64,000 bases of DNA from Bacteroidales bacterium (GTDB taxonomy: Bacteria > Bacteroidota > Bacteroidia > Bacteroidales > UBA10428): contig JBNKCO010000018.1 in NCBI GenBank assembly GCA_050287785.1, positions 73,149 through 137,148 of the forward strand, written 5' to 3'. The translations under genes and the position numbers were made by a program. Under the pieces are notes generated by a model. That model was given only the letters and a program-made list of their open reading frames with translations, searched no databases and was not told the origin of the DNA. This document shows positions 14,101 to 36,110 of the stretch, in pieces (the first letter of the stretch is position 1; each line of letters begins with the position of its first letter).

Positions 14101-14316
14101 ATAGAGGTTTATCCAACAATTACAGCCGGAGATGTAACCATCAATTTTAAAGATGAACCAGGTACATTTCAAGTATATTCTATAACTGGTATAAAACTCA
14201 TGGAACAAACTACAGCTGTTTATAGACAGGGAATTTATCTTCAGTCAAAAGGAATTTATTTGATTAAATTGAAGACTCATAACAACGAAAAGTTGGTGAA
14301 AATAGTTGTTCAATAA
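11128..14316 (+). CDS. secreted LamG / repeated Ig-like + beta-sandwich protein with embedded HExxH module and T9SS C-terminal domain
   Basis: 1062 aa; signal peptide; LamG_3-like N-domain (LVHQWTFDDGTANDG..LLHHMV..SIYNKKLNADEV); three Ig-like repeats (SGLNLSDPITITAPPGLT / RGVNLTDDITLTAPSGFT / SGYNLTSNVTLTAPDGIT); two paralogous jelly-roll-like domains ending GYIDNWE[VL]; HEMAH at 13567-13581; tail VYPTITAGDVTINF..KIVVQ. Confidence 0.85.
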   Translation: MNIMRRTITFLLITGIISFNNVIQAQTDPGTANLVHQWTFDDGTANDGIATDPVNGTLEGGATIVNYALKLNSQGDYVSFSGPDMAINTYATVTQEIWYTSVAGANSGYTMLSYFGKSNGYNYISTSTARGDDISYTAITDGTYNSEVGAAGPEYDDGLLHHMVSIVSTDSVILYLDGELIAKTKHSIPFSSVNNALAFLGKSGYTADPTWIGTISMFSIYNKKLNADEVKYLFELGPEQAPIIFTSATAINFDDIITTSSFTVSGLNLSDPITITAPPGLTISETELAADTTNAIINVTYDGVTAVDSAIILVSGGVEVELPVKSVTNDCYSPLYADLTNLNDDPYVSSLNNFDGWGVRSINTNPDFVYCGASSGNVSDGSLDIPLTGLLLPSTQYRVKAKVYAVGGSFQVGVLGWSSGSGDYIHLIKTTDSWQDVDFIFTTGSSLGAPPHRVFFNSVGLTGKSGYIDNWEVFAVPNIYTSASSLNFITPSLETVTIRGVNLTDDITLTAPSGFTLSSTTLTPNANGEEITVTYEGASTTDGYIYLTSGSITDSLYVSGSIDPTFITSVDRLVVDEISDSNSFMVSGYNLTSNVTLTAPDGITLSEYNLPSTVMDKIITVKYDGVANSSGVIKLTSGTYTFDLNLQAQLNEDCFTLLYTDRENLITDPTCNSFTAEGEGTRMINSDPAFVYCGARSAQVVTSGSIERNLTGVLKPNTSYRMRAKLYKKSPAQDGNMGHITYTLALDSAANPTNYNLIKTAMDSACYYYNKYTPFINNIYVYYNAGIPTAQAGYLSSIGFGPNTRYMWVGTAMHEMAHYFGSGTTSDWQEKMVGGKWTGSVANELIKEITNGSTETVSGDNNSSPVHYWPYGINQKEEITNLGSEATQVKALSDMARLVKAMLVDDTGLPTNNPAVGLGVFGWDDSNNDIYKEVYISNSWQDIDITFTTGANLDTKQGVFFNGGTGYIDNWELYDLSEITGINNTVTNIASIEVYPTITAGDVTINFKDEPGTFQVYSITGIKLMEQTTAVYRQGIYLQSKGIYLIKLKTHNNEKLVKIVVQ

Positions 14317-16171: not shown

Positions 16172-16177
16172 ATGATA

Positions 16178-18742: not shown

Positions 18743-19246
18743 TTAACTTAACAATGAAGCTATTTTTAAATCAATCATTTTTCTTAAATACGAATGATAG
18801 AATGTTCCCCATAAAGGTTTATCTTGAAAGTACGTTATATCATTTTTATCGGTTTCAATAACAACTGGAATTTCAAAAGCGGCCCAATGTTTATTTGAAA
18901 GCTTTGAGCAAAACTGTTTTGCGTCTTCATTAGCTGTGTTTCCAATTAAAACAGCAATTGAAACAACTCCTGAATGCAAACCTCTGGGTAAGCCTTTCTT
19001 ATTTTTTAAAGCATATTTATAAACACTTTGAGAATAATGTTCAATTTCTTCAGGTGAAATAATTGCATTTTTAGAAATCCCAACACTAATAAATATATTT
19101 AGTTGAGTGGCGAACCAAACTAACTTAAACTTATTAAATTGTGCTATAATGCTTTCTGCATTGTAGTCAAATTTATATTTGGAATGGAAAATATTACTGC
19201 CTATAGATTCCATTTCAAAGCGTTTTAATAATTCTGTTTTACTCAT
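18743..19246 (-). CDS. hypothetical protein (167 aa), unknown function
   Basis: Long ORF co-directional with the bacteriocin run; no motif recognised. Confidence 0.55.
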   Translation of the reverse strand: MSKTELLKRFEMESIGSNIFHSKYKFDYNAESIIAQFNKFKLVWFATQLNIFISVGISKNAIISPEEIEHYSQSVYKYALKNKKGLPRGLHSGVVSIAVLIGNTANEDAKQFCSKLSNKHWAAFEIPVVIETDKNDITYFQDKPLWGTFYHSYLRKMIDLKIASLLS

Positions 19247-19846
19247 AATTCCACTTTTTTCTTAAATATTGTACTGTGTCTTAAGCTCTATATTATTCAA
19301 GCTCTTTTGTAAACTAAAATTATAGAGGCTTAATTGTTGATAGCAAGCAGGATACTCCATAGTCAGATTGGTCTTTCTGCCTTATAAAAGGATTGTTTTG
19401 ATTCATTTTCGAGAAAGATTGGAAATAAGTATCCTAAAATATAACACAGAACAATAAGATGTATAACTTACATTGAGTTAGGTTTTTACTGATATTTTGC
19501 CTTTAAGTAGGTCAGTTATCCGAGATCTCTATAATTTCAGGGAAACACACACTATCAAGTGGAGATGATCAATTTTTATATTCATTTCTATTATTTGACA
19601 ATGTATCCACTCCAATTAGGGCTATCCATGGAAAATAAATCCTTTAAGAGTTTTTTTATTACTCAAGATCTAATATTTATGTGTTTAAACTATATAAAGA
19701 GAAAACCGATAAATGACATGACTTAATTTCTTAAAATTGCTCATTTTTCAAGATAACATATTAAGGTTTTGCCTACTAAACATTACCACCACCAGAGGAC
19801 ATGGTTTTAACGACTATAATAAATTAAGATAGATTGTCGTCATTAT

Positions 19847-20053
19847 TTAGTGAAGCTTATCAACTAACTTTTTTTCCTTGATGCCCTCAACTATTAAAGT
19901 CAATCCAGCTAGGAGAAATGCAGTCCACCCAATCCAATCAATAATCCTAATATCAAGTTCGTTAACAAATCTATCTATCACATAAATAATAAGGATAGCA
20001 AATAGTACTATCCCAAAATAAATTTTTGTGTTTGGTTTTAATATTCTTTTCAT
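19847..20053 (-). CDS. small two-TM membrane protein (candidate immunity/accessory)
   Basis: 68 aa with two hydrophobic helices (IYFGIVLFAILIIYVI; WTAFLLAGLTLIV). Confidence 0.5.
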   Translation of the reverse strand: MKRILKPNTKIYFGIVLFAILIIYVIDRFVNELDIRIIDWIGWTAFLLAGLTLIVEGIKEKKLVDKLH

Positions 20054-20121
20054 AACAATAGGTTTATATAGTTAAAAATAATACTTTTCTTATCAAAATA
20101 CTCGTCGGTATTATACCAAGA

Positions 20122-20649
20122 TTACAAACATGTGTTTTGTTTCGTTAAACTTTCTATTATCTGGTCGTTAAGCTTGAATTCGTACTTATTGACCAACTGT
20201 CCTTTATAGAAAATGTATGTACTGGGAGTATGTCTTATTTTAAAATAAGTATTACCCACCTCTTCTACTGAATAAGATAATATCTTTAATTGTTTATCAA
20301 CAAAGGGGAAGTCTTCTTTGAATTCAATAAGTTTTTGTAAATCTTGTTCAGAAACAAGTAAAATCTGAAATTTATCCAATAATTTATTACTAGAAGATAT
20401 TAATTGAATTTCATCCCAACACAGATAACAGTCAGTATTAAAGAAAACTATCATAAGGTTTTCTCTGTTTATAGAATCAGAATTATACTCTTCACCCGAA
20501 AGGTTCATAAATGAAAACTTAGGTAGATTAGCTATTCCTTTTAAATCCTCGCGTTTTTTCAAAACTATATTCGCAACAAAAAAAAGCAGAATACAAATGA
20601 TAATAAAATAGGACGTATTTATAATTGTACGAGATTTACCAGAAATCAT
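20122..20649 (-). CDS. membrane-anchored thioredoxin-fold thiol-disulfide oxidoreductase (TlpA/redoxin-like)
   Basis: 175 aa; N-terminal TM anchor (YFIIICILLFFVANIV); redox motif FFNTDCYLCWDE (CxxC); 4 nt from the upstream gene. Confidence 0.75.
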   Translation of the reverse strand: MISGKSRTIINTSYFIIICILLFFVANIVLKKREDLKGIANLPKFSFMNLSGEEYNSDSINRENLMIVFFNTDCYLCWDEIQLISSSNKLLDKFQILLVSEQDLQKLIEFKEDFPFVDKQLKILSYSVEEVGNTYFKIRHTPSTYIFYKGQLVNKYEFKLNDQIIESLTKQNTCL

Positions 20650-20653
20650 AATA

Positions 20654-21295
20654 TCATAAAGTTAGAAATAATAAAGTAATCATTAAAAGGAATAGAATCA
20701 TAAAGGCACCATATCCAAACAATCCTATTTTTAGACTGTCAACAAGTTTAAGGTTTTTGTTTTTCTTATATAGAAACCACGATATTAATAAACCATAAAG
20801 CACCTCAAACACATTTATTTTTGACATTGCAAAATACAACCAATTATAGGTTTCTGCTACATTAGGAAAAACCCCTATTAAAGAAAACAATGTTGTTGGA
20901 TTTATGTCACCTCCATAATTGAGTAATAGAACAATATTCATTATACCAGACACTAACATGATAGACTCTGATAACAAGACTATTCTTATCCCGTCATAAG
21001 TAGTGATGGAAATATTCCTTAGTAACCCTGTTGTACGAATTGCTGTAAGTACAAAGACAATTTTTAAAAGAAAAAAAACAACAACTTCAAGATATATTAA
21101 CCAAGTAAATTTCTGTTGCAAGGAAAACATTTTTTTTATTGCTTCTGTATTAATGTACCCCTCTTTTGAAAAAAGATTAACATAAAAATCATAGTCCATT
21201 ACTTTATTAAGTAGCAAATACGACAGTATCAATTTAATCAAAAGTATTATCAGAAGAATTTGAGCATTACTAATAACAAAGGTGTGTATTTTCAT
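20654..21295 (-). CDS. polytopic membrane protein (about 5-6 TM), candidate bacteriocin immunity
   Basis: 213 aa, hydrophobic helices throughout; first gene downstream of the bacteriocin precursor. Confidence 0.65.
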   Translation of the reverse strand: MKIHTFVISNAQILLIILLIKLILSYLLLNKVMDYDFYVNLFSKEGYINTEAIKKMFSLQQKFTWLIYLEVVVFFLLKIVFVLTAIRTTGLLRNISITTYDGIRIVLLSESIMLVSGIMNIVLLLNYGGDINPTTLFSLIGVFPNVAETYNWLYFAMSKINVFEVLYGLLISWFLYKKNKNLKLVDSLKIGLFGYGAFMILFLLMITLLFLTL

Positions 21296-21386: not shown

Positions 21387-21590
21387 TTAAAAACCACATG
21401 CTTCTCCCATTGCAATAGCGCCATAACTTGATGCTACAAAGCCCCCAGCACAAGCCAAACCTACAGAAGCAGCGCAGGTAGCAGCTGATATTACAACTAC
21501 TCCAGCATATAAGCCAATCATAATACCACATTTCCAACTGCCACCTTCAAGGTTTTCCATTTGTTCTAAACTTAAACTTTTCGTTTTCAT
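21387..21590 (-). CDS. double-glycine-leader class II (Blp-like) bacteriocin precursor, 4-Cys glycine/alanine-rich core
   Basis: MKTKSLSLEQMENLEGG / SWKCGIMIGLYAGVVVISAATCAASVGLACAGGFVASSYGAIAMGEACGF. The leader fits LSxxELxxIxGG. I prefer the ATG at 21590 over the track start at 21614. Confidence 0.85.
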   Translation of the reverse strand: MKTKSLSLEQMENLEGGSWKCGIMIGLYAGVVVISAATCAASVGLACAGGFVASSYGAIAMGEACGF

Positions 21591-21689
21591 AATTTTAATT
21601 TTTAAATTAGACATTAAGTTGAATTAATGTCCCCGTTGGCGCCTAACAGAGACAAAGCTTTATTTTGGATTTAACAAAACTCAAATAAA

Positions 21690-22460: not shown

Positions 22461-23543
22461 TTATTTTAAGTCTGTGTCGGGAATTTTAACTTGATTGCCT
22501 AATTCCAAACCTTCAAGTATTTCTGTTTTAACGCCATCTGATATTCCGGCAATCATTGCTTTCTTAATGTATTTGTTCTCAACATCGTGCACATAAACAA
22601 AAGCACTGTCTTCTTCATAAGATATGTATTTTTCTTCTAAACATAAAACACTATCCTTCTCTGCAATTGTAATAATAGCAACTGCATTTATTCCTCCGTA
22701 AAGTTTTTGGTCGCAGTTTATTATAGCTGCCTCAACTGGAAATTTAACTATCCCATTTTTATCTATTCCTTTCGGATATATTTTATCTATCTTCCCTTTA
22801 ATCTTAACTCCTTCAGTAAAAACAGTCTCGATAAATAATTCCTGTTCTTTATAAATTTTATTCAAATCCCTTTCCTGTATTTCTCCAAAGAATTTCAATG
22901 AATTCATATTAGCTATAACAGCAATAGTTGTTCCTTCGTTAAAGTTGTTTTGCTTGATTACAGGGGAACCCGGTTTTGCAAACAATGTCAAAATTGTACC
23001 AGAGGCAGATGCATATATAATATTTGATAATTCCTTGTCCGAAGTAATAACTCCCTTTGTTGCCATTAGGAGTTTTTTTCTTGCACTTTCGAATTGTTCT
23101 ATTGTTTCTTTATATTTTGCATCAACACTTTCAAATTCTGCTTTTGAGCTCAGCCCTGCTTCGCACAAACTCCTTTCTCGTTCATAGTTTATCTTAGCCG
23201 TATTTTTCTGAATTTCAAAAAGACTAACTGCCGATTTTAGGCTTTCAACATCCATGGGTTCTGTTAGATTTCTAATTTCTGCAATCTTTTGCCCCTCTTC
23301 AACTACTTGGCCAACTTCAACAAAAACCTTTTCAACAATACCATTTATTTTTGATTTAACCTTTATCTCCTCTGCAGGCATTATTTTCCCATTTATCCTC
23401 CTGTCAATTTTTATTGATTCTATTGTGGGGTTGCCTATTAGATAATTAGATGTCACGTCTTTGCGATTGATCTCTTTGAAAACAATCATGCCAATAACTC
23501 CAACAAAGAATACCAGTAGCAATATATTTAAGAGTTTTTTCAT
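22461..23543 (-). CDS. efflux periplasmic adaptor (MFP, HlyD/MacA-like)
   Basis: 360 aa; N-terminal TM anchor; lipoyl-like hairpin (INGIVEKVFVEVGQVVEEGQKIAEI), coiled coil, beta-barrel. Confidence 0.85.
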   Translation of the reverse strand: MKKLLNILLLVFFVGVIGMIVFKEINRKDVTSNYLIGNPTIESIKIDRRINGKIMPAEEIKVKSKINGIVEKVFVEVGQVVEEGQKIAEIRNLTEPMDVESLKSAVSLFEIQKNTAKINYERERSLCEAGLSSKAEFESVDAKYKETIEQFESARKKLLMATKGVITSDKELSNIIYASASGTILTLFAKPGSPVIKQNNFNEGTTIAVIANMNSLKFFGEIQERDLNKIYKEQELFIETVFTEGVKIKGKIDKIYPKGIDKNGIVKFPVEAAIINCDQKLYGGINAVAIITIAEKDSVLCLEEKYISYEEDSAFVYVHDVENKYIKKAMIAGISDGVKTEILEGLELGNQVKIPDTDLK

Positions 23544-23672
23544 TATTTATTAGATTTAGTCTCAAGATGTGAGACATTAGACATGAGACTATCTGAATTC
23601 ATTATTTTAAATTTTTAATTCTCCATTATTCATTATAAATTACAAATTCTTCTCTCTTAACTCTTCACCCTA

Positions 23673-24926
23673 TCATAAACTCCTCATCGCTACAACCGGT
23701 TTAATTTTCGCAGCCTTAAAGGCCGGAAGAAATCCTGCTACAAGTCCTGAAAATAATAATATCGTAATAGCAAGAACTATGTATTTTGGCTCAAGTGCAG
23801 TATGTGTAAAAAATCGATCATCACCTGTGCTTTTTGAAACCATAAGGTTTATTAACTTTAGAAATCCTGTACCAATCACCAATCCTAATATTCCAGACAA
23901 AATAGTTAGAATAACAGATTCAAAGAGAAACTCTTTTAGAACCACAACAGAGGATGCTCCAACTGCTTTTTTTATCCCGATCTCACGAGTTCGCTCTTTT
24001 ACAATAATGTACATAACATTACTTACTCCAATCATTCCACTTAGTAACAAACAGCAACCAACGAAAACAAAAAAAATGTTTAAGCCATTAAAAAGTTTTG
24101 AAAAGCTCGACATTTGTTCTTCATAGTTCACTACATATAAAGCTTTATTATTATTACTATCGAAATGATACTTTTTTGCTAATAATGATGTTATTTTCTC
24201 GGCATACCATTTTGTGTTTCCATCTGCTACAGTAATACCGAAAGACTTAAATTCATGAATAGGCTTGATAACTTCTGAAAAGCTTGTGTAAGGAATGAAT
24301 ATACAGTTTTGTTCATTCATCGACATTAGCGACTTATTATCCATAATTCCAACTACTAGAAAGTCTGTTCCGTTAACAGAAATGTTTTTATTAATTGGGT
24401 TGGAATTGCTGAAGAACTGTTTAACAATTCGGTCTCCGATTATGCAAATATTTCGGCCTTCATGGATATCGCGCTTATTGATTCTTCGTCCTTGTTTAAC
24501 TTTAAGGTTTTTTAATTTAAAGCTTTGTGTATTTATACCCTTTATTGTGAAATGTCCTCGTTCAGAATTATGTATTACAACTGTTCCGGAATTCTGAATT
24601 TCTGGAGATATTGCAATAATATTTGGAATACTTTTTTTTATTACTTCCAAATCAAAGAATTTAAAAGTAATATCTTTTCCTGAATCGCGCATTGAAATAT
24701 TTTCATCAGATTCTCCGCCGTAAAACATGATGGTTTTTTGAGTAAATCCTTTAAATAATCTATATACTCCTTCCTGCACTCCTCCACTAATCCCTAAGAG
24801 AACAATTAGAATAAAGATTCCCCAAGCAATTCCAAAAGAAGTTAGCAGGGTTCTTAATTTGTGAGCTTTAAGATTACTGTATATTTCTTTAACTAATTCA
24901 TAATATTTCTGAAAAGGCACTTTCAT
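23673..24926 (-). CDS. MacB-type ABC permease (MacB periplasmic core domain + FtsX)
   Basis: 417 aa; N-terminal KLRTLLTSFGIAWGIF helix, large periplasmic loop, three C-terminal TM helices, EIGIKKAVGAS motif. Confidence 0.85.
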   Translation of the reverse strand: MKVPFQKYYELVKEIYSNLKAHKLRTLLTSFGIAWGIFILIVLLGISGGVQEGVYRLFKGFTQKTIMFYGGESDENISMRDSGKDITFKFFDLEVIKKSIPNIIAISPEIQNSGTVVIHNSERGHFTIKGINTQSFKLKNLKVKQGRRINKRDIHEGRNICIIGDRIVKQFFSNSNPINKNISVNGTDFLVVGIMDNKSLMSMNEQNCIFIPYTSFSEVIKPIHEFKSFGITVADGNTKWYAEKITSLLAKKYHFDSNNNKALYVVNYEEQMSSFSKLFNGLNIFFVFVGCCLLLSGMIGVSNVMYIIVKERTREIGIKKAVGASSVVVLKEFLFESVILTILSGILGLVIGTGFLKLINLMVSKSTGDDRFFTHTALEPKYIVLAITILLFSGLVAGFLPAFKAAKIKPVVAMRSL

Positions 24927-25632
24927 AAAAGGGCTGAGATTGGATTAGGGTTTTATCATTGACTATTCTGCCATCAACTAAATTAATTATTCGATTTGTT
25001 TGGGCTGCAATATTATTATCGTGTGTAACTAATATAATTGTTTTTCCTTCTGAGTTGATATCTTCTAATACAAGCATTATTTCTTCCGATGTTTTTGAAT
25101 CTAAAGCACCTGTTGGTTCGTCGGCCAAAATAATTTTTGGATCAGTTATTAAAGCTCTTGCAATTGCAACTCTTTGTTTTTGTCCTCCTGAAAGTTCATC
25201 AGGCAAATGTTTTGCTCTATCTGACAAACCCAATTTATCGAGAAAAAACATTGCTTTCTCTAATCTTATCCTATTTGAGAAATTCTGATAATATAAGGGA
25301 AGAGCAACATTTTCAATAGCTGTCCGATGTGAAAGAAGATTAAATGATTGGAAAATAAAACCGAGTGTTGTACTTCTTAATAAAGCTTGTTCACTATCGG
25401 TTAAATTTTTAGTTGATTTACCATTCAGAAAATATTCTCCGGAATCGTATTCATCAAGTATACCAATAATGTTTAGCAAAGTAGATTTTCCACAACCAGA
25501 TGGGCCCATTATAGAAATATACTCACCTTGTTTAATACTTAAACAAAGTTTATCTAACGCCACAACTGTATTTGAATGCGTTGAATAGTCTTTCCTTAAT
25601 TCTTTTATTTCTATTAACTTATTTTGAGACAT
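24898..25632 (-). CDS. ABC ATP-binding protein (MacB/LolD-type)
   Basis: Walker A GPSGCGKST, signature LSGGQKQRVAIARAL, Walker B ILADEPTGALD. ATG at 25632 preferred over the TTG at 25644. Overlaps the permease by 29 nt. Confidence 0.9.
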   Translation of the reverse strand: MSQNKLIEIKELRKDYSTHSNTVVALDKLCLSIKQGEYISIMGPSGCGKSTLLNIIGILDEYDSGEYFLNGKSTKNLTDSEQALLRSTTLGFIFQSFNLLSHRTAIENVALPLYYQNFSNRIRLEKAMFFLDKLGLSDRAKHLPDELSGGQKQRVAIARALITDPKIILADEPTGALDSKTSEEIMLVLEDINSEGKTIILVTHDNNIAAQTNRIINLVDGRIVNDKTLIQSQPFYESAFSEIL

Positions 25633-26068
25633 TCCTTTTAACAATCAATTGAAAAAACATATTTTAATTAAAGGGTTGAAAATGATTATAATCCTATATT
25701 TTACATTGTAATGATACAACCGAAAAGATAACAATGAAAATATTTTATGCTAATGCGGCTAATCTCTATTCCAATGAAGAAACCTGCACCACTATTGAAA
25801 AATAAGAAAACTTGTTTTAGTGTAAATGCGCACAAAGTGAACCAATAAATTGACTTTGTATTCAATGCCTTATATAGTCGGCTTAGCATGCAAGGTATGA
25901 CTAATTATATTCTGTCTATAAGCTTCACTAACTTCGTTGCACTCTACTTGAAATCCAGTCATTCCGATGCACGTTCGGGACTCCTGAACCCCAGGTCTCT
26001 CGCGCCTCGTTATTGATGCTTACAGAACAGACTTTTGGAAAAATGCAGACTTTATGGACAAACTCTAA

Positions 26069-26158
26069 TTAGTCTTGTTCTTTGTATTTAAACTCAGGAT
26101 GCCCAAATTGCCAAAGCAGAAAAGAAAAACTATCGGCATTTTCAGAAAACCAGGAATA
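26069..26158 (-). pseudogene. C-terminal remnant of a prolyl-oligopeptidase paralog
   Basis: Minus-strand translation YSWFSENADSFSFLLWQFGHPEFKYKEQD* closely matches the tail of the 30497-31339 paralog (RFSESADSFSFLFWQFAHPEFTLKY); an in-frame TGA lies just upstream and there is no start. Confidence 0.75.
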
Positions 26159-26178
26159 TCAGTTTAACATAACAAACA

Positions 26179-28380
26179 CTAATGAAATGCTTTTTCTTTT
26201 AGAGAATACTTGAGATGACCGGTCTGCCAAAATGCAAAAGAATATACATTTGCCAATTGTTCATAATATATTGATTTAGTATCATTCAAGCCATGCCCGG
26301 ATTTATAATTCACCGAGAATATAATCGGTTTGTCTGAAATGTTATTGGCTTGAAGTTTGGCAGCAAATTTCCCGGGTTGCCATGCAATTACACGTGGATC
26401 ATTCATGCCAGTTGTAATTAAAGTAGCCGGATAGTCCGTATTCATCTTTATATGAAGATAAGCATCCATCTCAATAAGAGCCATACACTCTGTAGAATCT
26501 TTTATTGTTCCAAACTCTTTGGCATTATTAGGGCCATTAGGGGTTTCTTCATTTCTAAGTGGATTCATCATTCCAACTTCTGCAATAGCCACAGCAAACA
26601 AGTCTGGCCTTTCTGTTAAAGCACGTCCAATAAGTATTCCTCCTGCACTCCCTCCCCTGATTACTGTTTTATTTTTAGATGTGTACCCCTCTTTAATCAT
26701 AAATTCAGTACAGGCTATAAGATCTTTCCATGTATTTGGCTTGGTTATCTTTTTACCCTCTTGATACCAATTGTCTCCTTTTTCTCCTCCTCCCCTTACA
26801 TGAGCTATACACAAAATACCTCCTTCTTCTACCCAGGTTAACCATTTTGGATTAAAGTAAGGTCTGATGGAATGTCCATAGGAACCATATCCATAGATCA
26901 TTGTCGGATGTTGTCCATTTAATGAAATATTCTTTTTATGTATCACAGATAGTGGAACTTTTTCTCCATCATACGAGGAAACAAGCAGCTCTTTTAATAC
27001 AAAATCATCAAACTCTGGGAAAAATGTTTTTGGTTCAAGATTTTCTTCAATAAATGTGTTTTTAGTAAAATTGTATTGATATCGGTTATAATCATTTATC
27101 CAGCCTATGGTTGATACCCATAATTCTGGATAATTGGTACCTTTATTAAAAATATTTATCCTACCTGATGGATTTGGTAAGACTATCTCATTTTCTTTTC
27201 CATCGTTTAAACTATATAGTTTGCCTTCAACACCATTTTTAGTACTTGTATAATAAAGGCAGTTAGAGGTTTGTTTTATATCTCTGATAACTTCGTCATG
27301 TTTTTCGTCTACCAGTACGGTCGCATTTTTTATATCAGGATCTCTTAACAAAGAACTCAACACTTGAAAGTTTGAAGAATTAAGTGCTGACAAACATATA
27401 AAAGTAGTATCCTCAAATATTATTTTTTCTACCTTATCCGCTTTCTTATGTAGAGGTTGCCATTCAAGATTTCCCTTTTGAATATTTTTAAGCAGTCCAT
27501 AATATCCATCATGGTATGCTGTAGCTCCACCAATATTTACATATAAATATTGATCTTCCTCTGACTGACACATAACAATAGGAAAATCTTCTGACCTCAA
27601 GTTAAGCTCAGGATGAGTCTCTCTACTTAATAAAACATTTAGTTTTTTGGGATCATCTCCTATTTTATAGAAAACAGACATCGTGTTTTTTAAAAAATTT
27701 TCTGAAGTATGATCTATTTCAGGTAAATGCACATACAAAATACCACTATTATCCGGAAGCCAACTTATCCCACCAATTCCTGTTGGCCAACAATGATCGA
27801 TAATTTGTGGCAATACTTTCCTGTTTCTCATATCTATAAAGATTATCTCTGAAACTTCTTCACCATTATGCGACAATGATACAGCTATATAGTCACCATT
27901 CCAACTTGGTTTAATATAATTAATAACATAGGTATTACCTGTCTCTATCTTGAAATTTTTGGGATCAAATAATAGTTCATCTTTGCTACTGAAACTCTCT
28001 CGATAAAACAAACGAGCTACATCCTCATCAGCTCCCTGCTTTAAAAAGAAATACTGATCGTTTCCTGTTACATATACCTTCCAGACTTCAAACGATACAC
28101 GTTGGTCATACATCTTCATTTTTTCTATCAATTCTGCTTTGCCAGTAATATTCCAAAAAATTCTTTTTGCAAATTCAGATTCTTCTTTAAACCATTTTTG
28201 TACAAGAGTATCTTTTAAGTTTTCAATATTTCTATAATCATCCTGAATAGTTTTACCAAAATACTTTTCTGAAACAATTTGCATTGGTGCTTCCGGATAA
28301 TCAAAACGTGATGAATTTATTTTCTCAGACTGATTACATCCAATTAATAAGATCAAAAGAAGTGGGCTTAGTTTTTTCAT
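26179..28380 (-). CDS. prolyl oligopeptidase (peptidase S9A), lipoprotein
   Basis: 733 aa; lipobox LLIGC; propeller region; catalytic domain with GGSAGG nucleophile elbow, NDPRV Asp, SGHG His. Confidence 0.9.
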   Translation of the reverse strand: MKKLSPLLLILLIGCNQSEKINSSRFDYPEAPMQIVSEKYFGKTIQDDYRNIENLKDTLVQKWFKEESEFAKRIFWNITGKAELIEKMKMYDQRVSFEVWKVYVTGNDQYFFLKQGADEDVARLFYRESFSSKDELLFDPKNFKIETGNTYVINYIKPSWNGDYIAVSLSHNGEEVSEIIFIDMRNRKVLPQIIDHCWPTGIGGISWLPDNSGILYVHLPEIDHTSENFLKNTMSVFYKIGDDPKKLNVLLSRETHPELNLRSEDFPIVMCQSEEDQYLYVNIGGATAYHDGYYGLLKNIQKGNLEWQPLHKKADKVEKIIFEDTTFICLSALNSSNFQVLSSLLRDPDIKNATVLVDEKHDEVIRDIKQTSNCLYYTSTKNGVEGKLYSLNDGKENEIVLPNPSGRINIFNKGTNYPELWVSTIGWINDYNRYQYNFTKNTFIEENLEPKTFFPEFDDFVLKELLVSSYDGEKVPLSVIHKKNISLNGQHPTMIYGYGSYGHSIRPYFNPKWLTWVEEGGILCIAHVRGGGEKGDNWYQEGKKITKPNTWKDLIACTEFMIKEGYTSKNKTVIRGGSAGGILIGRALTERPDLFAVAIAEVGMMNPLRNEETPNGPNNAKEFGTIKDSTECMALIEMDAYLHIKMNTDYPATLITTGMNDPRVIAWQPGKFAAKLQANNISDKPIIFSVNYKSGHGLNDTKSIYYEQLANVYSFAFWQTGHLKYSLKEKAFH

Positions 28381-28574
28381 ATTGTTGCCTTATTAGTAAA
28401 AATACTTTTATGGGTTTTAACCAGTAAAATAATTTTATGTAGAGTATTGCTGTTTATAAAATATTAAATAATCAGAATGTTGAACATAAATATATCATTA
28501 TATGTGCTTGAAAGTGTAATTACAGAATAAGCAAATTAGTATTTGCCCTACAACAAACTAATCTAGAAATCAAA

Positions 28575-29297
28575 CTAAGAAATATTCAATGCCTTAAGCA
28601 CCCCTTTTTTATAAGTTATTCCTATTGGGATATTTACTTTTTTATTCTTCCTTTCAATTAATATCTCACTACCTCTAACCGATTCTATTTTATCAATTGC
28701 CATTATATAAGACTTATGAATTCTAATAAAAATATCTTTTGGCAATATCTCCATTATGGAATTCATTGATTTATAAATAATATGCTTATTTTCTTCCATC
28801 ACAATTATAATATAATTCCTAGCAGCTTCAATGTATAGAATATCGTTAAAATCAATTTTAACCTTTTTCCCATCTACATCGGCAAAAAAGAAATTATGAA
28901 TTGGTTCTGCAGTTCTCTGTTTGTCCAGATCATTTAAAATTCGATCTACCGATTTTTTAAATCTTTTAAATGTTACTGGTTTCAATATATAATCAGATAC
29001 TCCCAACTCGTAACCGCTTAAAGTATAATCAATGTGCCCGGTTGTTAAAACTACATGCGGAATATTATGGCCCCACCTTTCTTTCATATTCTCAATTAAA
29101 TCAATTCCAGTAAATTCGGGCATTTGTATATCCAAAAACATTATATCTGGCTTATTGCTATCTAAAAAAGCAAGTACATCAATAGACTTGGTGCTTGCAT
29201 ACATTAATGCTAGCTGTGGTATTTTATTTATATGGTCTTTAATAAGGTTAATTGCCTCTTCCTGGTCATCGACAACTATGCAATTGTATTGTTTCAT
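28575..29297 (-). CDS. LytTR-family response regulator
   Basis: Receiver (IVVDDQE, FLDIQMPEFTG, ILKPV) plus LytTR domain (FIRIHKSYIMA). Confidence 0.9.
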   Translation of the reverse strand: MKQYNCIVVDDQEEAINLIKDHINKIPQLALMYASTKSIDVLAFLDSNKPDIMFLDIQMPEFTGIDLIENMKERWGHNIPHVVLTTGHIDYTLSGYELGVSDYILKPVTFKRFKKSVDRILNDLDKQRTAEPIHNFFFADVDGKKVKIDFNDILYIEAARNYIIIVMEENKHIIYKSMNSIMEILPKDIFIRIHKSYIMAIDKIESVRGSEILIERKNKKVNIPIGITYKKGVLKALNIS

Positions 29298-29316
29298 TGT
29301 TTTTTTTGTGAATTTC

Positions 29317-30357
29317 TTAACTATTAATCCTCAGTATACTATAATACATATTTTCTTTTTCTTCAGTAATCAACTCATAATTTTCGCTATAATGCAGATT
29401 AAGTATTTGCCTTGCGTTTTCAAGGCCTATACCAGAGCTTACTACATTTTTATTTTTATTTATCATGTTCTTCACATAAAACTCTATTTGATTTTCAGTA
29501 ATTACCAACTTGATTTCAATTGGATTTTCCTTTGTGCTATAAACTCCATGTTTAAAGGCATTTTCCACAAAGGTTATCAAAACTCTGGGATATATAGTAA
29601 TGCCATCCAAATTACCCTTGGTTACAATATCCACAAACACATCTTTGTTGAGTATTTTACGTAAACTAATATAATTGCTTAAGTATCTAATTTCATCCTT
29701 TAACTGAACGGTAACTTCAGGAGCATAGCTGGTATAATAACGTAACATGTCAGAATATTTCTCAATCGCTCTAGCAGTTTCTTTCGAGCATTGATTAGCG
29801 ATACTATAAATATGGTTTAAGAAATTAAACGTAACATGTGGATTAAACTGATTTTTAAAAAAAAACAGTTCCTTTTTTAAAAGGGCGGTGTCTTTTTCAT
29901 TCTGTAATCTAATTTTTTGCATTTTAAGTTTCCTAAAATAATAGGAAAAAGCAACAAGGCAAATTATAAAAAACCATGTAGAATAAATCCTAAAAAACCT
30001 TTGACTTGGAAATAAAAGTTGAGGTTTAATTTTTAAAATGGTAACATCATAGATAAAATAGGAATTCAAGTAACCAATAAAATAATAAACAAGTAATTGA
30101 ACAATAAAAAAGGTGAAAAACAACAGTTTCCCTTTAGGCCAAAATTTTGGTAAAGTGAACATTATCAATCCATAAAAAGCGACTAAATGATTAACATAAA
30201 GTATAGAGTTAAATATTATCTTCCCTGGATATATTTCTTTAATTTGAGCTGTATTATATAAATATACAATTAGCACAATCCAAATAGCAAAATGACTGAT
30301 GATATTCTTATTGAATTGATTTGTCACCTTATTTTTATAGACTAAAATCTTTCGCAT
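29317..30357 (-). CDS. membrane histidine kinase (PF06580 type) without a large sensory exo-domain
   Basis: 346 aa; about 5 N-terminal TM helices; H-box FNPHVTFNFLNHIYS; FVENAFKHG; SGIGLENARQIL. Confidence 0.85.
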   Translation of the reverse strand: MRKILVYKNKVTNQFNKNIISHFAIWIVLIVYLYNTAQIKEIYPGKIIFNSILYVNHLVAFYGLIMFTLPKFWPKGKLLFFTFFIVQLLVYYFIGYLNSYFIYDVTILKIKPQLLFPSQRFFRIYSTWFFIICLVAFSYYFRKLKMQKIRLQNEKDTALLKKELFFFKNQFNPHVTFNFLNHIYSIANQCSKETARAIEKYSDMLRYYTSYAPEVTVQLKDEIRYLSNYISLRKILNKDVFVDIVTKGNLDGITIYPRVLITFVENAFKHGVYSTKENPIEIKLVITENQIEFYVKNMINKNKNVVSSGIGLENARQILNLHYSENYELITEEKENMYYSILRINS

Positions 30358-30496
30358 ATTCTTATTTTAAAATAGCCTTTTTACTTTATGATCATATTCA
30401 TTTTCCATACATTAATAACTATTTATGAAAACTTTTCAGCAACTAAATATCTATGTGTCCAATATAAGAGATTAAAAAAAACATAACAACCTTAAC

Positions 30497-31339
30497 TTAG
30501 TCTTCAATATTTTCAGGGATTTTATTTTTCGGGTATTTTAATGTAAATTCAGGATGAGCGAACTGCCAGAATAAAAATGAAAAGCTGTCTGCACTTTCGG
30601 AAAACCTAGAATGTCCTTTATCAGATATGTTAAACAATATAATATTATTCTTAGAATTCAAACTTTGCAGGCGAGCAACTGTTTTACCTGTTTGCCATGG
30701 TGAAACGCGAGGATCATTCAACCCTGCAGAAAAAAGAATTGAAGGATAATTCACACCCGTTTTTATATGGTGATAAACATCCATATTATATATATATATT
30801 GAAACTCCAATAAATGCGACAAAATTAGCATCATAGGAAGGTTCATAATAATCAATCCTATATTCTACACTGTCGGCCATGTTTATGCTGTCTAAATTAA
30901 ACAACTCTTTAAGTGCGTCAGCAATAGAAGGCATGTAGTTTAAAGTATAAGCCTTTGTTGCATAAGAATACCTGGCGAAAAATAAATCTTCTCCAACTGC
31001 TCTAGGCAAGTCTGACCAATAGGTGCGTTGATTATTTAAATTGTTAATCTCTTCTTTGATAGAATCTCTACTAGTTATATTATACATTACAGAGTCATAA
31101 AATGCCCTTTGTCCTGCGTACCAAGTTTTAACTAATGCATCTTCTAAGTTTTCAATATTACGGTAAGGATCAATTACTTCCATTCCAAAATAGTTATCTA
31201 TAGCCGTATCAGGAGCTATTATTGGATAATTCCAGGTTGCTTGTTCCAATGGAACTTCTTGAGGATACGAAATAAGAATAATAAAACATGATAGGATAGA
31301 CAGGGTTGATTTCATTATGTTATTATGCAATATGGTCAT
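30497..31339 (-). pseudogene. prolyl oligopeptidase paralog with large in-frame internal deletion (no nucleophile, no propeller)
   Basis: N-terminal ~190 aa (DPYRNIENLEDALVKTWY..) and C-terminal ~95 aa (NMDVYHHIK..GLNDPRV..KGHS..FLFWQFAHPEF) align to residues ~1-170 and ~638-733 of the intact POP. The junction IYIY is encoded by (TA)6 at 30787-30799. Confidence 0.8.
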
Positions 31340-31375
31340 TTGTTTATATTATTACAGCTATTCGTTTACGTAGAT

Positions 31376-32389
31376 CTACCATATTATGGTTAACGTGCTG
31401 GTGTAAAATTCATTTAATTGTTTAATATCTATTTTGTACTTTCCTTTATAATGCATTTCCAGGATTTGTTTCAAATTGTCTTCACCTAAGCCAGCTAAAA
31501 TTGGTTTCTTATGTCTGGTTATTTTGTTTTTTACCGAAAAATCAAGTCTCTCTTTGCTAGCTTTCATGTTTATTTCAATAGGATATTCCTTGTTGTTTAA
31601 CTGCTCACGTATAAAGACATTCTCAACAAATGTCACTAAAAGTCGTGGTAAAATCGATTTATTCTTAGCCTTATTCTCGTAGTTAAAAACTACATACAAT
31701 TCTGAACTTAGCGCTTTTTGCAACTCAACAAAATTATCTAGATACTCAATCTCATGTTCCAGTGGAACACTTTCATTAAGATTAGTTCTTAATGAATATT
31801 CCAGCATATCAGAAAACACTTCTATCGAGTTTGTTGCTTTTTCAGAATATTTGTTCAAATGGCTGTAGCAAAAGTTTAAAAAATTAAAGGTTAAATGGGT
31901 GTTAAACTGTCCTTTAAGAAAATCAAGTTCGTTATTAATCAATACTTCTTCTTTTTGTTTTTGCAGGGCGAGTTTGTATATATTCAATTTGTTCAAATAA
32001 AACACAAATGCACAGGAACCTATAATAGAAAGTTGAAGAATTGCATCAATAATAAAAACTGTTACAGGTTTTCCATAAAGCTTGCTAGTACCACCAAGTT
32101 TTGGAACTATATACATCACCCTCACATATTTAATCAAAACAAATACAATAAAAACAGTACACAAACTCATAAAAAAAACTAAAAATTGTTTTGTATAGAG
32201 TTTTGGGAAAATATTTAAGGCCAGGGCATAGTATAAAAATATATAATTCCCAAATCCTACAGCACCACCAATTATATTTACTCTAACATCTCCGGGAATT
32301 GGATCAATTAGCATTATAAATGCAATAATTAGTACCCAACTGAAAAAGTGTTTCTTTAATTCTTTATTAGGTAGAGTAAAAGGATTCAT
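31376..32389 (-). CDS. membrane histidine kinase (PF06580 type), paralog of 29317-30357, no adjacent response regulator
   Basis: 337 aa; about 5 TM helices; H-box FNTHLTFNFLNFCYS; FVENVFI and AGLGEDN boxes are somewhat degenerate. Confidence 0.8.
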   Translation of the reverse strand: MNPFTLPNKELKKHFFSWVLIIAFIMLIDPIPGDVRVNIIGGAVGFGNYIFLYYALALNIFPKLYTKQFLVFFMSLCTVFIVFVLIKYVRVMYIVPKLGGTSKLYGKPVTVFIIDAILQLSIIGSCAFVFYLNKLNIYKLALQKQKEEVLINNELDFLKGQFNTHLTFNFLNFCYSHLNKYSEKATNSIEVFSDMLEYSLRTNLNESVPLEHEIEYLDNFVELQKALSSELYVVFNYENKAKNKSILPRLLVTFVENVFIREQLNNKEYPIEINMKASKERLDFSVKNKITRHKKPILAGLGEDNLKQILEMHYKGKYKIDIKQLNEFYTSTLTIIW

Positions 32390-32835
32390 AAAAACATATT
32401 TATCCGAAAGATAATTTTATTATTAGGGATATTATTAATTCTTATTCATACTTTGTTTTTTTTTGGACAAACATAAGAATTACTTATATGAATTTAGAAT
32501 AGGTAGACAAGTAAATATTACAAAAACATATGACTTTGTATGCTAACACTTAAGGTTTTCTAAACATGATAAAAAAAGGTAAAGCTTAGCTGATAATTAA
32601 TTTTTTAACCAAAACATTAAATACTAAAGGCACAATATACCAAATCAATAGATAAAAACTAAATGAGCTGATATAAATGAATAATAATTATACTAAATGC
32701 CAATTATTTAATATAAATTATCTATTGAGTTGTTTGAAATGGCTTTTTGACTTCACAAGTAAAAACATTAGAAATGAAATTAGTTATGAATTTAATTATG
32801 TTTGTACACACAAACCTTATTATAAAATTTCAAAT

Positions 32836-32995
32836 ATAAAAAAGACAAAAGAACTTCAACTTAAAAAACAGGTAATACAACATTTGACTAAAAATGAACA
32901 ACTCTTTATATAGAGGTGGTGGTGACACTGGGTATGGTAATAGTGATCTTACTGATAATCCATCTCAGATAGGTGGTACCGGCACAAAACACTAA
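32836..32995 (+). pseudogene. GG-leader precursor-peptide gene, apparently inactivated (ATA in place of ATG, +1 frameshift before the GG site)
   Basis: Frame 1 reads (ATA)KKTKELQLKKQVIQHLTKNEQLFI*. Frame 2 reads ..LYRGGGDTGYGNSDLTDNPSQIGGTGTKH* (ATG at 32894, stop 32993-32995). Lies just upstream of lanB. Confidence 0.5.
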
Positions 32996-33085: not shown

Positions 33086-35382
33086 ATGCCCTTTAAAATT
33101 CATCCGAAATTAATATTACGCTCTCCAAGTTTCCATTTTAAAGGATTAAAAACATAAAGAAATACATTAAACAGTTAAATATATCTTATAAAGAAAATAG
33201 AATTTTACAGACTGACCTGGTAAAAGAAGCCAAAACCTCTAAACTCAACCAGGGAATTCAAAAAACTCTGAAAAACGGTATTAACGCTTTACTGTATTTC
33301 ACACAAAAACCGATAAAATATAACTTAGAAAAGTTTAAAGAATCGTTTGTTAAAAGATACGAATTGAAAGAGGTACCCTTACTAAATGCCCTTGATACAG
33401 AAACCGGACTTGGCTACCCCATTGTCATTATTGGCAGCAAAACACCTCTAATTGAAAATATTGCTTTTACGCTTCATGAAACAAATAGTATTGCTTTTAA
33501 TGAAAGAGATAAGATTTGTCTGGAGATATTACAAAAGGCTCACTTGTTTAATGATTATTCTGTAGACATTAAAGATTTTATTTCGAACAAACCTAAACCA
33601 AATTGGGATAGTCTACCTCCTTCGTTTTCAGCAATGTTCAGAGTAACTAATTTTGAGAAAAATGAAATTTTTCTGGAATCGGTAGGGGGGAGCAGTGCGA
33701 TAAATCTTTTAGGCAGATTTGCACATACCGACAAGCAGATACACGAAATAATATCGAAAATAGCTAATGAAGAGCAAAAAAATAACCCTGATGTTATTTT
33801 TGCTGAGATAGCTCACAATCCGGAGAATCGTACGGGAAATATTATCTCACACCCTGCTTTTAGAGATTATGAAATCCCAATTGTATCTTCATCTAACCCA
33901 AATGTTAAGCATTCAATTGCATTGTGTGATCTTTTATTATCAGTAAGAAACAACAGGATTATTCTAAGGTCGAAAAAGTTAGACAAAGAAATAATTCCTC
34001 GATTAAGCAATGCACATAATTTTCCCAAGAGTGAACTACCTATATATAGGTTTCTGTGCGATCTTCAAACACAAAATAACAATTCATCACTTTCATTCAA
34101 TTGGGGAAGTCTATCAGACAATTTTCTGTTTCTTCCTAGAATAACACATGATAATACAATTCTCAGTCTTGCTACCTGGAAATTGCCAAAAAGCGAACTA
34201 CTCATCTTAACAAAGAATAAGAATGCTTATTTGCTTTTGCCTGAATTTCTAAAGAAATGGAAGATTCCAAATCAAGTAGTAATTGCTGACAGAGATAACG
34301 AGCTATTTATTGATTTTAGTAATGATTTATCTGTTGAAGTTTTTTTAGACGTAATAAGAAAAAAAGAAAGCATTGTTTTAAAAGAATTTCTTTTCGATGA
34401 AAATACTCCTATTGTCGATGAGAATGGGAAAAGATATACTAATCAGTTTATAGCCTCTTTCGTAAAAGATGAAGCTGTTTACAAGAGGAAATCTTTTTCC
34501 CATGAATCGAATATTGAAGTTAAGCGTGAATTTACGCCAGGTTCTAAGTGGGTATATTTAAAATACTATTGTGGAACAAATACAGCTGACAACCTGTTAA
34601 GCGATATTATTAAGCCAATAGCTGATAAATTCCTAAAAGAACAAATTATTGATAAATGGTTTTTTATACGTTATCGCGATGAAGATGAACACTTAAGGGT
34701 AAGATTCCACATAACTAACACAAAGTATCTCTCCGAGGTAATGCAAACAAACTCAGGATACACACAGAAATATATCGACCAAGGTCTTATCTGGAAAGTA
34801 CAAACCGACACTTATATTAGAGAAATAGAGCGGTATGGTGCTGCAACAATGGAATTAAGCGAACAGCTTTTCTTTTATGATAGCGAAGCTATTTCAATAT
34901 TTCTATCATCAATTGATGAAACTACTGATACAAACATACGATGGCTATGGGGAATAAAAGCCATAGACACTCTAATGAATTGCTTTGGCTTAGAGCTGGA
35001 AGATAAAAAGAAATTAATGGAGCAATTAAAAATTGCATTTGCAAATGAGTTTAAGTTAGAAAAACCATCCAAGCTTCAAGTTGATAAGAATTATCGAAAA
35101 TACTCTAAGCAGATATGTTCTGCATTAGATAATAATTTGGAGGAAAATCCCTTGTATTCTTACCTGAATATTATTGAAGATTATCAAATTAATATCTTGA
35201 AAATTGCACCGAATATAATTTTAAGAACGTCTAACTCTTCTGATTTATGGAGTTATCTCAAAAGCTATATTCATATGCATATTAATAGGTTGCTAAAAAG
35301 CTCTCAACGCCTAAATGAAATGGTTATTTACGATTACATTTATAGGTACTATCGTTCTCTTATGGCCAGGGGAAATAAATAA
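33086..35382 (+). pseudogene. lanthipeptide dehydratase (LanB-like), 5'-truncated and frameshifted
   Basis: MPFKIHPKLILRSPSFHFKGLKT* (33086-33157) is in a different frame from the 33142-35382 ORF. That ORF has FKESFVKRYELKEVPLLNALDTETGLGYP, which lies ~380 aa into NisB but ~90 aa in here. C-terminal elimination domain present (WVYLKYYCG..WFFIRYRDEDEHLRVRF..ERYG). Confidence 0.7.
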
Positions 35383-35962: not shown

Positions 35963-36026
35963 ATAAAACACAAAAAACCCGCAAGTAAAGTACTTGCGGG
36001 TTTTTATTTTCTCCTAAAATTTTGGC
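35963..36026. repeat. right copy of 63/64-nt imperfect direct repeat (candidate att site) overlapping the last 4 nt of tRNA-Ser
   Basis: Aligns with 14355-14417; its last 4 nt (tggc) are the discriminator + CCA of the tRNA on the minus strand. Confidence 0.8.
35971..36006 (-). terminator. terminator hairpin immediately 3' of tRNA-Ser
   Basis: Same stem cccgcaagta / tacttgcggg (35978-35987 / 35991-36000), flanked by A- and T-tracts. Confidence 0.75.
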
Positions 36027-36110
36027 GGAGAAAGAGGGATTCGAACCCCCGGTGCGTTGCCGCACAATGGTTTTCAAGACCACCGCATTCGACCACTCTG
36101 CCATTTCTCC
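36023..36110 (-). tRNA. tRNA-Ser (anticodon UGA), type II with long variable arm, CCA encoded
   Basis: Hand-folded: acceptor GGAGAAA/TTTCTCC, anticodon arm GTGGT-CTTGAAA-ACCAT, variable arm TGTGCGGCAACGCACCGG, T-arm GGGGG-TTCGAAT-CCCTC, G-CCA end. Confidence 0.9.

Follow-up and report, generated by a model that had tools for sequence, protein, structure and literature searches.

What could join membrane histidine kinases to peptidases in a single gene array is the question raised by one locus in a 64,000-nucleotide stretch of DNA from a Bacteroidales bacterium (assembly GCA_050287785.1, contig JBNKCO010000018.1, positions 73,149–137,148 of the forward strand), hereafter the window. Positions 26,069–32,389 of the window carry, on the minus strand, two histidine kinases of family PF06580 (HK1 and HK2), a LytTR response regulator, and one intact and two incomplete S9A serine peptidases of the prolyl oligopeptidase (POP) type. 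A first reading, made from the letters alone (the sequence-only reading), regarded the array as a locally duplicated and eroding unit wedged between two loci for peptides whose leader ends in Gly-Gly (GG), and proposed a circuit that matures or quenches a peptide signal. From comparison with related loci and analogy to known systems, we consider it probable (roughly 60%) that the array belongs to a cassette for peptide-based cell-to-cell signalling tied to antimicrobial-peptide genes, of which the window holds a decayed copy.

The order HK1, internally deleted POP, HK2, LytTR regulator, 733-residue POP and 29-codon POP tail was confirmed, with all six pieces found at the coordinates in Table 1 by the list of open reading frames (ORFs) and Pfam. 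Misassembly of the POP paralogs was ruled out because these are only 31–50% identical at the protein level and because a separately assembled Logan contig (run SRR36185847) has the same array structure. The remnant of the first cassette POP (POP1) carries an in-frame deletion of ~470 residues, which left the signal peptide, the first ~170 residues and the last ~90; the catalytic Asp and His are kept and the Ser nucleophile is gone. Its residues ~27–175 align to residues 17–166 of the intact peptidase (POP-A), and its residues 186–268 to POP-A residues 638–728. Against the second POP of the related locus L006 (L006_POP2), residues 1–168 showed 51% identity and residues 638–725 showed 65%. As a search query the remnant matched only itself, and its clade was therefore placed through the loci recovered with HK2.

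Gene context was examined for eight of the closest HK2 homologs (34–53% identity), which were chosen for the length of their contigs and without regard to context. The cassette was present at every one of the eight loci, seven times as HK1–POP–HK2 and once (L096) in a single-kinase form (Table 1). The peptide gene is divergent from an HK1–POP–HK2–LytTR operon, which is often followed by further POP genes, and spacing within intact cassettes ranges from overlap to 67 nt, which fits an operon. The neighbours are a lone lanthipeptide dehydratase (LanB) gene, an exporter of the ATP-binding cassette (ABC) type with a C39 peptidase (C39-ABC), or a class I lanthipeptide cluster that is complete. Intact LanB genes are present in L006, L013, L011 and L094. 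As a control, a metagenome scan with an HK2 alignment gave 80 generic PF06580 kinase loci (27–41% identity) and no new cassette members. A POP was found in none of the 80 within the sequence covered, and 39 of them span at least 8 kb; with these 39 as controls, the comparison stands at 8/8 related loci versus 0/39 (Fisher p = 3e-9). The kinase/LytTR/POP adjacency beside GG-leader peptides, which the sequence-only reading had suggested surveying, thus recurs at every related locus examined and is absent from the PF06580 control set. By these comparisons, the kinase–POP–LytTR cassette is old and fixed and occurs in several Flavobacteria-like bacteria, and the copy in the window is half decayed.

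The strongest evidence in this analysis for pairing the peptide, as ligand, with the kinases came from L006 and L007, which represent two strains in one metagenome. As far as the start codon of LanB, 5.9 kb of their flanking DNA is 98.6% identical; identity is 99% between the regulators and 95–100% between the kinase domains of HK2 (residues ~130–337). In contrast, identity falls to 30–42% in the membrane sensor of HK2 (residues 1–120), 45% in HK1 and 56% in POP1. No DNA similarity was detectable between the two strains in the peptide gene and the intergenic region, and the peptide cores, NGQDTTSPEKTMIPPDDEGELKDKD and NDNSENTNDPETRDNGS, are unrelated. Hypervariability of signal, processing enzyme and sensor next to conservation of the kinase core and the LytTR regulator is the hallmark of agr specificity groups and of com/blp pherotypes. 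The resemblance of the L006/L007 pattern to these pherotypes suggests that the kinases have the peptide as their ligand and that the peptidase is among the parts that set specificity. The second POP of L007 is a chimera of residues 1–40 of L006 POP2 and residues 41–399 of L006 POP1 (~100% identical), which suggests that the POP copies (7801–14067 in L006, 7822–13062 in L007) have been reshuffled by recombination among paralogs.

A gene for a GG-leader peptide adjoins HK1 in the window, where it is a pseudogene, and in all nine related loci. In an alignment, the nine cassette peptides share with true lanthipeptide precursors (LanAs) the leader LxLxKx5L...GG, a pattern described for class I lanthipeptide leaders of Bacteroidetes (PMC7268733). 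The peptide L011a reached 35.1 bits on the NCBIfam model lant_leader_L1a (cut-off 22) and was the only one to pass; a Pfam scan of the short peptides gave no significant match, and precomputed PF28317 matches are listed for L011 and L095. The nine cores are 15–25 residues long and hydrophilic, with a grand average of hydropathy of -0.15 to -2.6. Cysteine is absent from all 178 core residues, Ser and Thr together make up 19%, and Pro accounts for 12.4% versus a background of 3.5% (~3.5-fold; binomial p = 4e-7, or 6e-4 without the Pro-rich L008 core). LanC and Cys-rich LanAs were found only as separate genes in L011 and L094/L095, where they lie with LanB and C39-ABC genes downstream of the regulator; the window, L006, L007 and L013 contain no LanC. 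The distinct Cys-rich LanAs indicate that the cassette peptide is not the lantibiotic, and its shared leader means that it could use the same LanB and exporter. Lanthipeptide mining based on RODEO drops cores that lack Cys (PMC7268733, methods), which may explain why the cassette peptides went unnoticed.

The history of the array differs from the one first proposed. HK1 and HK2 are paralogs, as claimed (32% identity over 336 residues, E = 1e-54), and HK1, HK2 and the regulator all group with their positional counterparts from other loci. HK1 of the window is 57% identical to HK1 of L007 and 42% to that of L013, versus 30–37% to any HK2; HK2 is 51–53% identical to the HK2s of L006, L007 and L013; and the regulator shares 70% identity with its counterparts in L006 and L007, versus 30–34% with unrelated LytTR regulators. 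This orthology by position identifies the kinases as ancient paralogs and rules out a recent tandem duplication in the window genome. The claim that a kinase–(regulator)–POP unit was duplicated locally at least twice and then partly deleted was therefore abandoned, also because POP-A comes from a different clade. Paralogy of all three POP pieces held only in part: the POP1 remnant and the tail belong to one clade, POP-A to another, and the three do not make up a single local family. Identity of the tail is 73% to the C-terminus of the POP1 remnant and 67% to L007_POP1. Cassette POPs form their own clade, being mostly 42–57% identical to each other (the L011 POP is an outlier at 34–39%) and ~28–34% identical to a clade linked to sdhCAB. 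POP-A is 62–64% identical to Aquimarina POPs encoded after sdhCAB and 31–34% identical to cassette POPs. Its closest relatives directly follow sdhCAB in Aquimarina-like genomes (L002–L004), and a 58% identical relative (L005) has a different context; the best matches were to Aquimarina and Sinomicrobium, and a scan of a genome collection with POP-A as a single-protein query gave one locus, in Aquimarina litoralis. In the window, POP-A occupies the slot of the second cassette POP of L006 and L007, ~20 nt upstream of the last 29 codons of that POP. On the grounds of its sdhCAB-linked clade and of this position before the POP2 remnant, POP-A looks like a replacement of the second cassette POP and not a local duplicate.

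The peptidases combine the PF02897 beta-propeller with the PF00326 alpha/beta-hydrolase domain. The Ser/Asp/His triad is kept in POP-A and in every full-length cassette POP, and all full-length cassette POPs have a signal peptide or a lipobox. The best matches of a cassette POP among solved structures were the prolyl endopeptidases 2BKL and 3IUJ, and its sequence matches the macrocyclases PCY1 and GmPOPB as well as hydrolytic POPs.

Both kinases carry the H-box that had been read from the sequence, as FNTHLTFNFLN in HK1 and FNPHVTFNFLN in HK2. Their topology was described correctly in that no sizeable external domain is present, and the number of membrane segments was corrected from about five to ~4 hydrophobic segments in the first ~140 residues (Kyte-Doolittle scan and manual reading). 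HK2 of the window has a canonical N-box (FVENAFKHG) and G-box (GIGLEN), and all HK2 orthologs retain [FL][VI]ENAFKHG as N-box and S(S/T)G(I/V)G as G-box. HK1 of the window has an intact H-box, an altered N-box (FVENVFIRE) and the G-box GLGEDN. Its orthologs retain the H-box histidine; the N-box Asn is lost in L008, L009 and L013 and the G-box in 5/7 orthologs, and HK1 of L094 is canonical. From the loss of the N-box Asn and G-box, we infer that HK1 is often a pseudokinase or a co-receptor. PF06580 was the only Pfam family found in either kinase, and neither belongs to the AgrC/ComD/PlnB family (HATPase_c_5 type); no Pfam match to 5TMR_LYT or GAF domains was found before PF06580 at E<=0.01, and the sole match to a solved structure was a generic histidine kinase. 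The regulator matches PF00072 and PF04397 (E about 1e-17 each), and its best NCBIfam match, far below the cut-off, was BtsR. A loop motif, (I/V)xPxL(G/N)G, was seen between hydrophobic segments 3 and 4 in HK1 orthologs (including that of L094, 6747–7772) and in the sole kinase of L096 (10001–11044), and the corresponding loops of HK2 are variable; the ligand or the peptidase might make contact at this motif. A 210-residue ORF (29032–29664, plus strand) is antisense to the junction of the regulator and HK2 and is probably a spurious frame in AT-rich DNA.

A promoter-like element, TAATTCTTATGTTTGTC, lies upstream of HK1, with one copy each in the window, L006 and L007, always in the same place; the copy in L013 is degenerate. 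Its TAnnTTTG is the -7 promoter box of the Bacteroidota type. Counts in a sigma-70 promoter and terminator scan, whose model was not built for Bacteroidota promoters, did not exceed those of shuffled controls.

The circuit that we propose builds on the cassette itself, the properties of its peptides, the exported S9A enzymes with intact triads, the linkage to LanB, C39-ABC and lanthipeptide genes, and the hypervariable block; the roles of signal, exporter, peptidase and kinases would follow by analogy to ComCDE, BlpRH and agr. A precursor with a class I lanthipeptide-type leader ending in GG would be made, and LanB, where present, may dehydrate its Ser and Thr residues. An exporter composed of the C39-ABC protein, an adaptor and an outer-membrane factor would cut the leader at GG and secrete the peptide, and the short hydrophilic core would re-enter the periplasm. 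There the exported S9A peptidase would trim the core, either maturing it, as SepM does with the competence-stimulating peptide (CSP) of S. mutans, or quenching it. The membrane domains of both kinases are predicted to sense the product, HK2 being competent and HK1 often degenerate in its ATP-binding motifs, and the kinases would phosphorylate the LytTR regulator, which would drive the divergent promoters and neighbouring genes for bacteriocins or for peptides made by ribosomes and modified after translation (RiPPs). The conserved adjacency and the L006/L007 hypervariability fit the maturing or quenching circuit of the sequence-only reading, and the proline specificity included in it is not assured. 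We also put forward, tentatively and with less than even confidence, a fuller version: a dedicated peptide quorum-sensing system of Flavobacteria-like Bacteroidota. Its signal would be a peptide that lacks Cys, has a lanthipeptide leader and may be dehydrated by LanB; it would be secreted by a C39-ABC and outer-membrane exporter and trimmed by an exported S9A peptidase of unusual specificity encoded between two co-evolving sensor kinases, one of them a pseudokinase. Its pherotypes would switch on lanthipeptide or bacteriocin clusters, and genomes of the window type would have lost the sender and kept the receivers.

Several observations weigh against a signalling circuit. The tryptophan of the S1 subsite (W595 of the porcine enzyme, the W of 'tWipeYg' in 2BKL), which stacks on the P1 proline in characterised POPs, is missing from all cassette POPs, where Asn, Ala, His, Gln or Gly stands instead. 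In the clade of POP-A (sampled as POP-A of the window, L002–L005 and homologs P0001–P0120), POP-A itself has Asn at this position, and the 61 homologs with a readable motif have Asn, Ser or His. Since the S1 Trp is absent from all motif-readable S9A enzymes of both clades, post-proline specificity cannot be assumed, contrary to the initial claim that such enzymes cleave after proline; to judge from this residue, the annotated specificity of the widespread flavobacterial 'prolyl oligopeptidase' clade of the POP-A type may be wrong. One of the nine cores, that of L009, has no proline. The pherotype-like pattern comes from a single strain pair in one metagenome, and one of the two contigs has only 11x coverage. 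The kinase family is not one known for peptide-pheromone sensing. Searches for regulator sites in the divergent promoters (LytTR direct repeats at 18–24 bp spacing, k-mer recurrence versus shuffles, and a consensus scan) gave the one conserved promoter-like element and no significant repeats; 10-bp repeats at 21-bp spacing occur in L008 and L009 only, and repeat counts were not above shuffles. Finally, several genomes have lost cassette parts to breakage, which could mean that selection on the system as a whole is weak: L006 has a split HK1 (6786–7792), LanB is frameshifted in L007 (3147–6210) and reduced to a 67-residue C-terminal remnant in L008 (5613–5816), and L009 (11887–12754) has a 72-residue fragment of a second POP followed by a resolvase gene.

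These points leave room for other explanations of the locus. The cassette might be a resistance or immunity module resembling BceRS-AB or NSR-type proteolytic lantibiotic resistance, in which the kinases would respond to envelope stress or to incoming peptide antibiotics, the product of the cell itself among them, and the regulator would induce the exported peptidases, joined in the window by the MacB-type transporter, to degrade or expel them. Export or lipid anchoring of POPs encoded within a kinase operon, the up to four POP copies in L006, the MacB/FtsX/HlyD transporter directly after the window array and the S41 peptidase inside the L094 lanthipeptide cluster would all suit such a module. 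We nevertheless regard it as unlikely, since the cassette always has its own leader-bearing peptide, acidic or neutral and very hydrophilic, unlike a membrane-active antibiotic, and since hypervariability limited to the peptide, HK1, POP and the HK2 sensor, beside a 99% identical regulator, is the pattern of a signal and its receptor; moreover, L008 and L009 have no other bacteriocin gene within the sequence covered. Somewhat less likely still is that the peptide is the final product and that the S9A enzyme trims it or cyclises it head-to-tail (cf. GmPOPB, PCY1 and OphP) while the kinases answer another cue. The similarity of the cassette POP to PCY1 and GmPOPB as much as to hydrolytic POPs, the enrichment of proline in the cores and the adjacent LanB in four loci are in line with this; however, the proline position is not conserved, the cassette enzymes are exported whereas known POP macrocyclases work intracellularly, and the cassette is intact in L008 and L009, of which the former has lost LanB and the latter lacks it at the locus. 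A biosynthetic peptidase would also leave the co-variation of the kinase sensor domains with the peptide unexplained.

Adjacency by chance was considered as well, because PF06580/LytTR pairs are very common in Flavobacteriia and POP-A might merely lie nearby. The closest POP-A orthologs (62–64%) come after sdhCAB, with no linked kinase in L003 and L004, and unrelated PF06580/LytTR pairs lie within three genes of a POP in L002 and L005. For the cassette this explanation is refuted by the contrast between related and control loci, and gene order and orthology are conserved; both POP remnants of the window are of the cassette clade. Chance could hold for POP-A alone. As an account of the locus it is very improbable. 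We therefore retain the peptide-signalling circuit as the preferred reading.

The analogy to Firmicute bacteriocin circuits drawn in the sequence-only reading is apt at the level of function and does not extend to the kinases, which are of PF06580 (LytS/YehU type) and not of the AgrC/ComD/PlnB type. In common with PlnABCD, BlpC/BlpH/BlpR and ComC/ComD/ComE, the cassette has a GG-leader peptide, C39-ABC export, a polytopic kinase without a large external domain, a LytTR regulator, bacteriocin or RiPP neighbours and allelic variation of peptide and sensor (pherotypes). It differs from them in its Gram-negative Bacteroidota host with an outer-membrane factor, its two paralogous PF06580 kinases of which one is often degenerate, its divergent peptide gene that is not the first of the operon, its lanthipeptide-type leader with a lone LanB often adjacent, and the S9A peptidase gene built into the kinase operon. 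Action of an extracellular protease on an exported signal is shared with SepM and CSP of S. mutans. The sharp boundary between the hypervariable signal, processing enzyme and sensor and the conserved kinase catalytic domain and LytTR regulator is that of staphylococcal agr, although the cassette has neither an AgrB-type membrane protease nor a thiolactone, an exported S9A serine peptidase being present instead, and its kinases are of another family. As with NisRK and SpaRK, a two-component system lies beside LanB, LanC and LanT genes (L011, L094) and probably controls them; NisK/NisR, however, are a HisKA/OmpR pair that senses the lantibiotic itself, whereas the cassette regulator is of the LytTR type and a separate Cys-free peptide with the same type of leader appears to be the ligand. 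PF06580 kinases with LytTR regulators are also found in LytS/LytR and BtsS/BtsR (YehU/YehT). The cassette kinases differ from these in that no 5TMR_LYT or GAF domains were detected, and the LytS and BtsS systems respond to small metabolites such as pyruvate, or to membrane potential, and come without a peptide, exporter or peptidase of their own.

Known S9A peptidases of RiPP maturation are FlaP, for the class III flavipeptin (PMC10885120), and LanPB (PMC7268733). FlaP, LanPB, GmPOPB, PCY1 and OphP share with the cassette enzymes the S9A beta-propeller fold and triad, a gene in a RiPP locus and short peptide substrates. These known RiPP enzymes are intracellular and act on leader or follower peptides; the cassette enzymes, unlike them, have a signal peptide or lipobox, a place in a kinase operon and no S1 Trp.

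The surroundings of the array complete the picture of the window (Table 1). GG-leader peptide loci are indeed present on both sides. On the HK1 side, the cassette peptide gene has a start codon changed from ATG to ATA and a +1 frameshift (1-nt insertion) that splits the leader end …LTKNEQLFI* from RGGG-DTGYGNSDLTDNPSQIGGTGTKH; the intact ortholog in L013 reads …INEKLFIRGGGDNPNSEQ…. The adjacent LanB gene is not full-length, having lost ~250 residues from its N-terminal part with a change of frame, and a tRNA gene, the sole match in Rfam and tRNA scans, bounds the island. Inactivation has thus struck the window's peptide gene, its LanB and its two cassette POPs, and HK1, HK2 and the regulator are full-length. 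With its sending half dead, the window genome is probably unable to make the signal and at best listens. The locus would be either an orphan listener, perhaps still controlling the GG-bacteriocin and exporter genes at 14.8–25.6 kb, or a cassette en route to loss.

On the other side of the array lie the MacB-type transporter genes, a helix-turn-helix protein and a GG-leader bacteriocin precursor, followed (18743–21295) by genes for one polytopic membrane protein and one thioredoxin-like protein and by small membrane ORFs, all of which probably serve immunity or maturation for a separate bacteriocin of class II-like type. The C39-ABC and outer-membrane factor genes beyond them (14834–18367) likely encode the exporter and GG-leader protease. 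Further left (11128–14316, plus strand) is a gene for a 1062-residue secreted protein whose C-terminus resembles a type IX secretion system sorting domain by eye only; together with the best matches of POP-A, this resemblance points to Bacteroidota. A G+C-rich patch of ~90 bp (25930–26020; …GAGACCTGGGGTTCAGGAGTCCCGAACG…) was observed between the ABC ATPase gene and the POP tail in a spacer of otherwise ~30% GC; it had no Rfam match at E<=1, contains no tRNA and is not present in related loci.

Table 1 Features of the window, with positions counted from its first nucleotide, and gene orders of the related loci; a slash separates the peptide side from the divergent kinase operon.
Feature	Position	Strand	Remarks
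TolC-like outer-membrane factor (OMF)	14834–16171	minus	block 14834–18367
C39-peptidase ABC exporter	16178–18367	minus	block 14834–18367
GG-leader bacteriocin precursor	21387–21614	minus	Gly/Ala-rich, five Cys; possible regulated effector
MacB-type ABC ATPase, FtsX permease and HlyD-family adaptor	22461–25644	minus	directly downstream of the array
POP2 remnant, cassette-clade POP tail	26069–26158	minus	last 29 codons and stop, YSWFSENADSFSFLLWQFGHPEFKYKEQD*; tblastn match
POP-A, intact S9A lipoprotein peptidase	26179–28380	minus	733 aa; lipobox LLIGC; motif GGSAGG
LytTR response regulator (RR), intact	28575–29297	minus	240 aa; Response_reg and LytTR domains
HK2, PF06580 histidine kinase, polytopic	29317–30357	minus	346 aa; Pfam E = 3.5e-15
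POP1 remnant of cassette	30497–31339	minus	open 280-aa frame; weak PF02897 and PF00326 matches
HK1, PF06580 histidine kinase, polytopic	31376–32389	minus	337 aa; Pfam E = 6e-13; leads the cassette operon
Conserved promoter-like element TAATTCTTATGTTTGTC	32466–32482	minus	~80 bp upstream of HK1; contains -7 box TAnnTTTG
Cassette peptide pseudogene	32836–32995	plus	lanthipeptide-type leader LQLKKQVIQHL...RGGG and Cys-free core DTGYGNSDLTDNPSQIGGTGTKH; intact orthologs in L013 and L006
LanB (lanthipeptide dehydratase) pseudogene	33086–35382	plus	23 N-terminal codons (33086–33157), then residues ~276–1011 in another frame (33187–35382)
tRNA-Ser (TGA)	36023–36110	minus	bounds the island
Locus L006			LanB, peptide / HK1 (split) - POP - HK2 - RR - POP - POP - POP
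Locus L007			LanB (frameshifted), peptide / HK1 - POP - HK2 - RR - POP
Locus L013			LanB, peptide / HK1 - POP - HK2 (contig ends)
Loci L008, L009			adaptor - C39-ABC - OMF, peptide / HK1 - POP - HK2 - RR
Locus L011			peptide / HK1 - POP - HK2 - RR - LanA - esterase - LanC - monooxygenase - LanB - C39-ABC
Loci L094/L095			peptide / HK1 - POP - HK2 - RR - LanA - S41 peptidase - LanC - LanB - C39-ABC - adaptor
Locus L096			peptide / HK - POP - RR - POP (single-kinase variant)

Peptide-based cell-to-cell signalling is regarded as mainly a Gram-positive trait. To our knowledge, no peptide-pheromone circuit has been described in Bacteroidota, and we know of no account of how their many lanthipeptide clusters are controlled. 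The earlier statement that the arrangement matches no described regulatory system stands for the full-text literature that was searched and for the Pfam tables in the supplement of PMC7268733; papers behind subscription, the Pedobacter lusitanus study among them, lay outside the search. With a candidate signal, processing enzyme, receptors and regulator in one compact cassette, the regulation of lanthipeptides in Bacteroidota would become directly testable, and the cassette draws attention to peptides with a leader and no Cys, a class that lanthipeptide mining drops by design. If the proposed circuit is correct, it would help in activating silent RiPP clusters of Flavobacteriia and would give S9A peptidases a new role, and the differing losses of parts between genomes would form a natural data set on the loss of senders and receivers (“cheating”).

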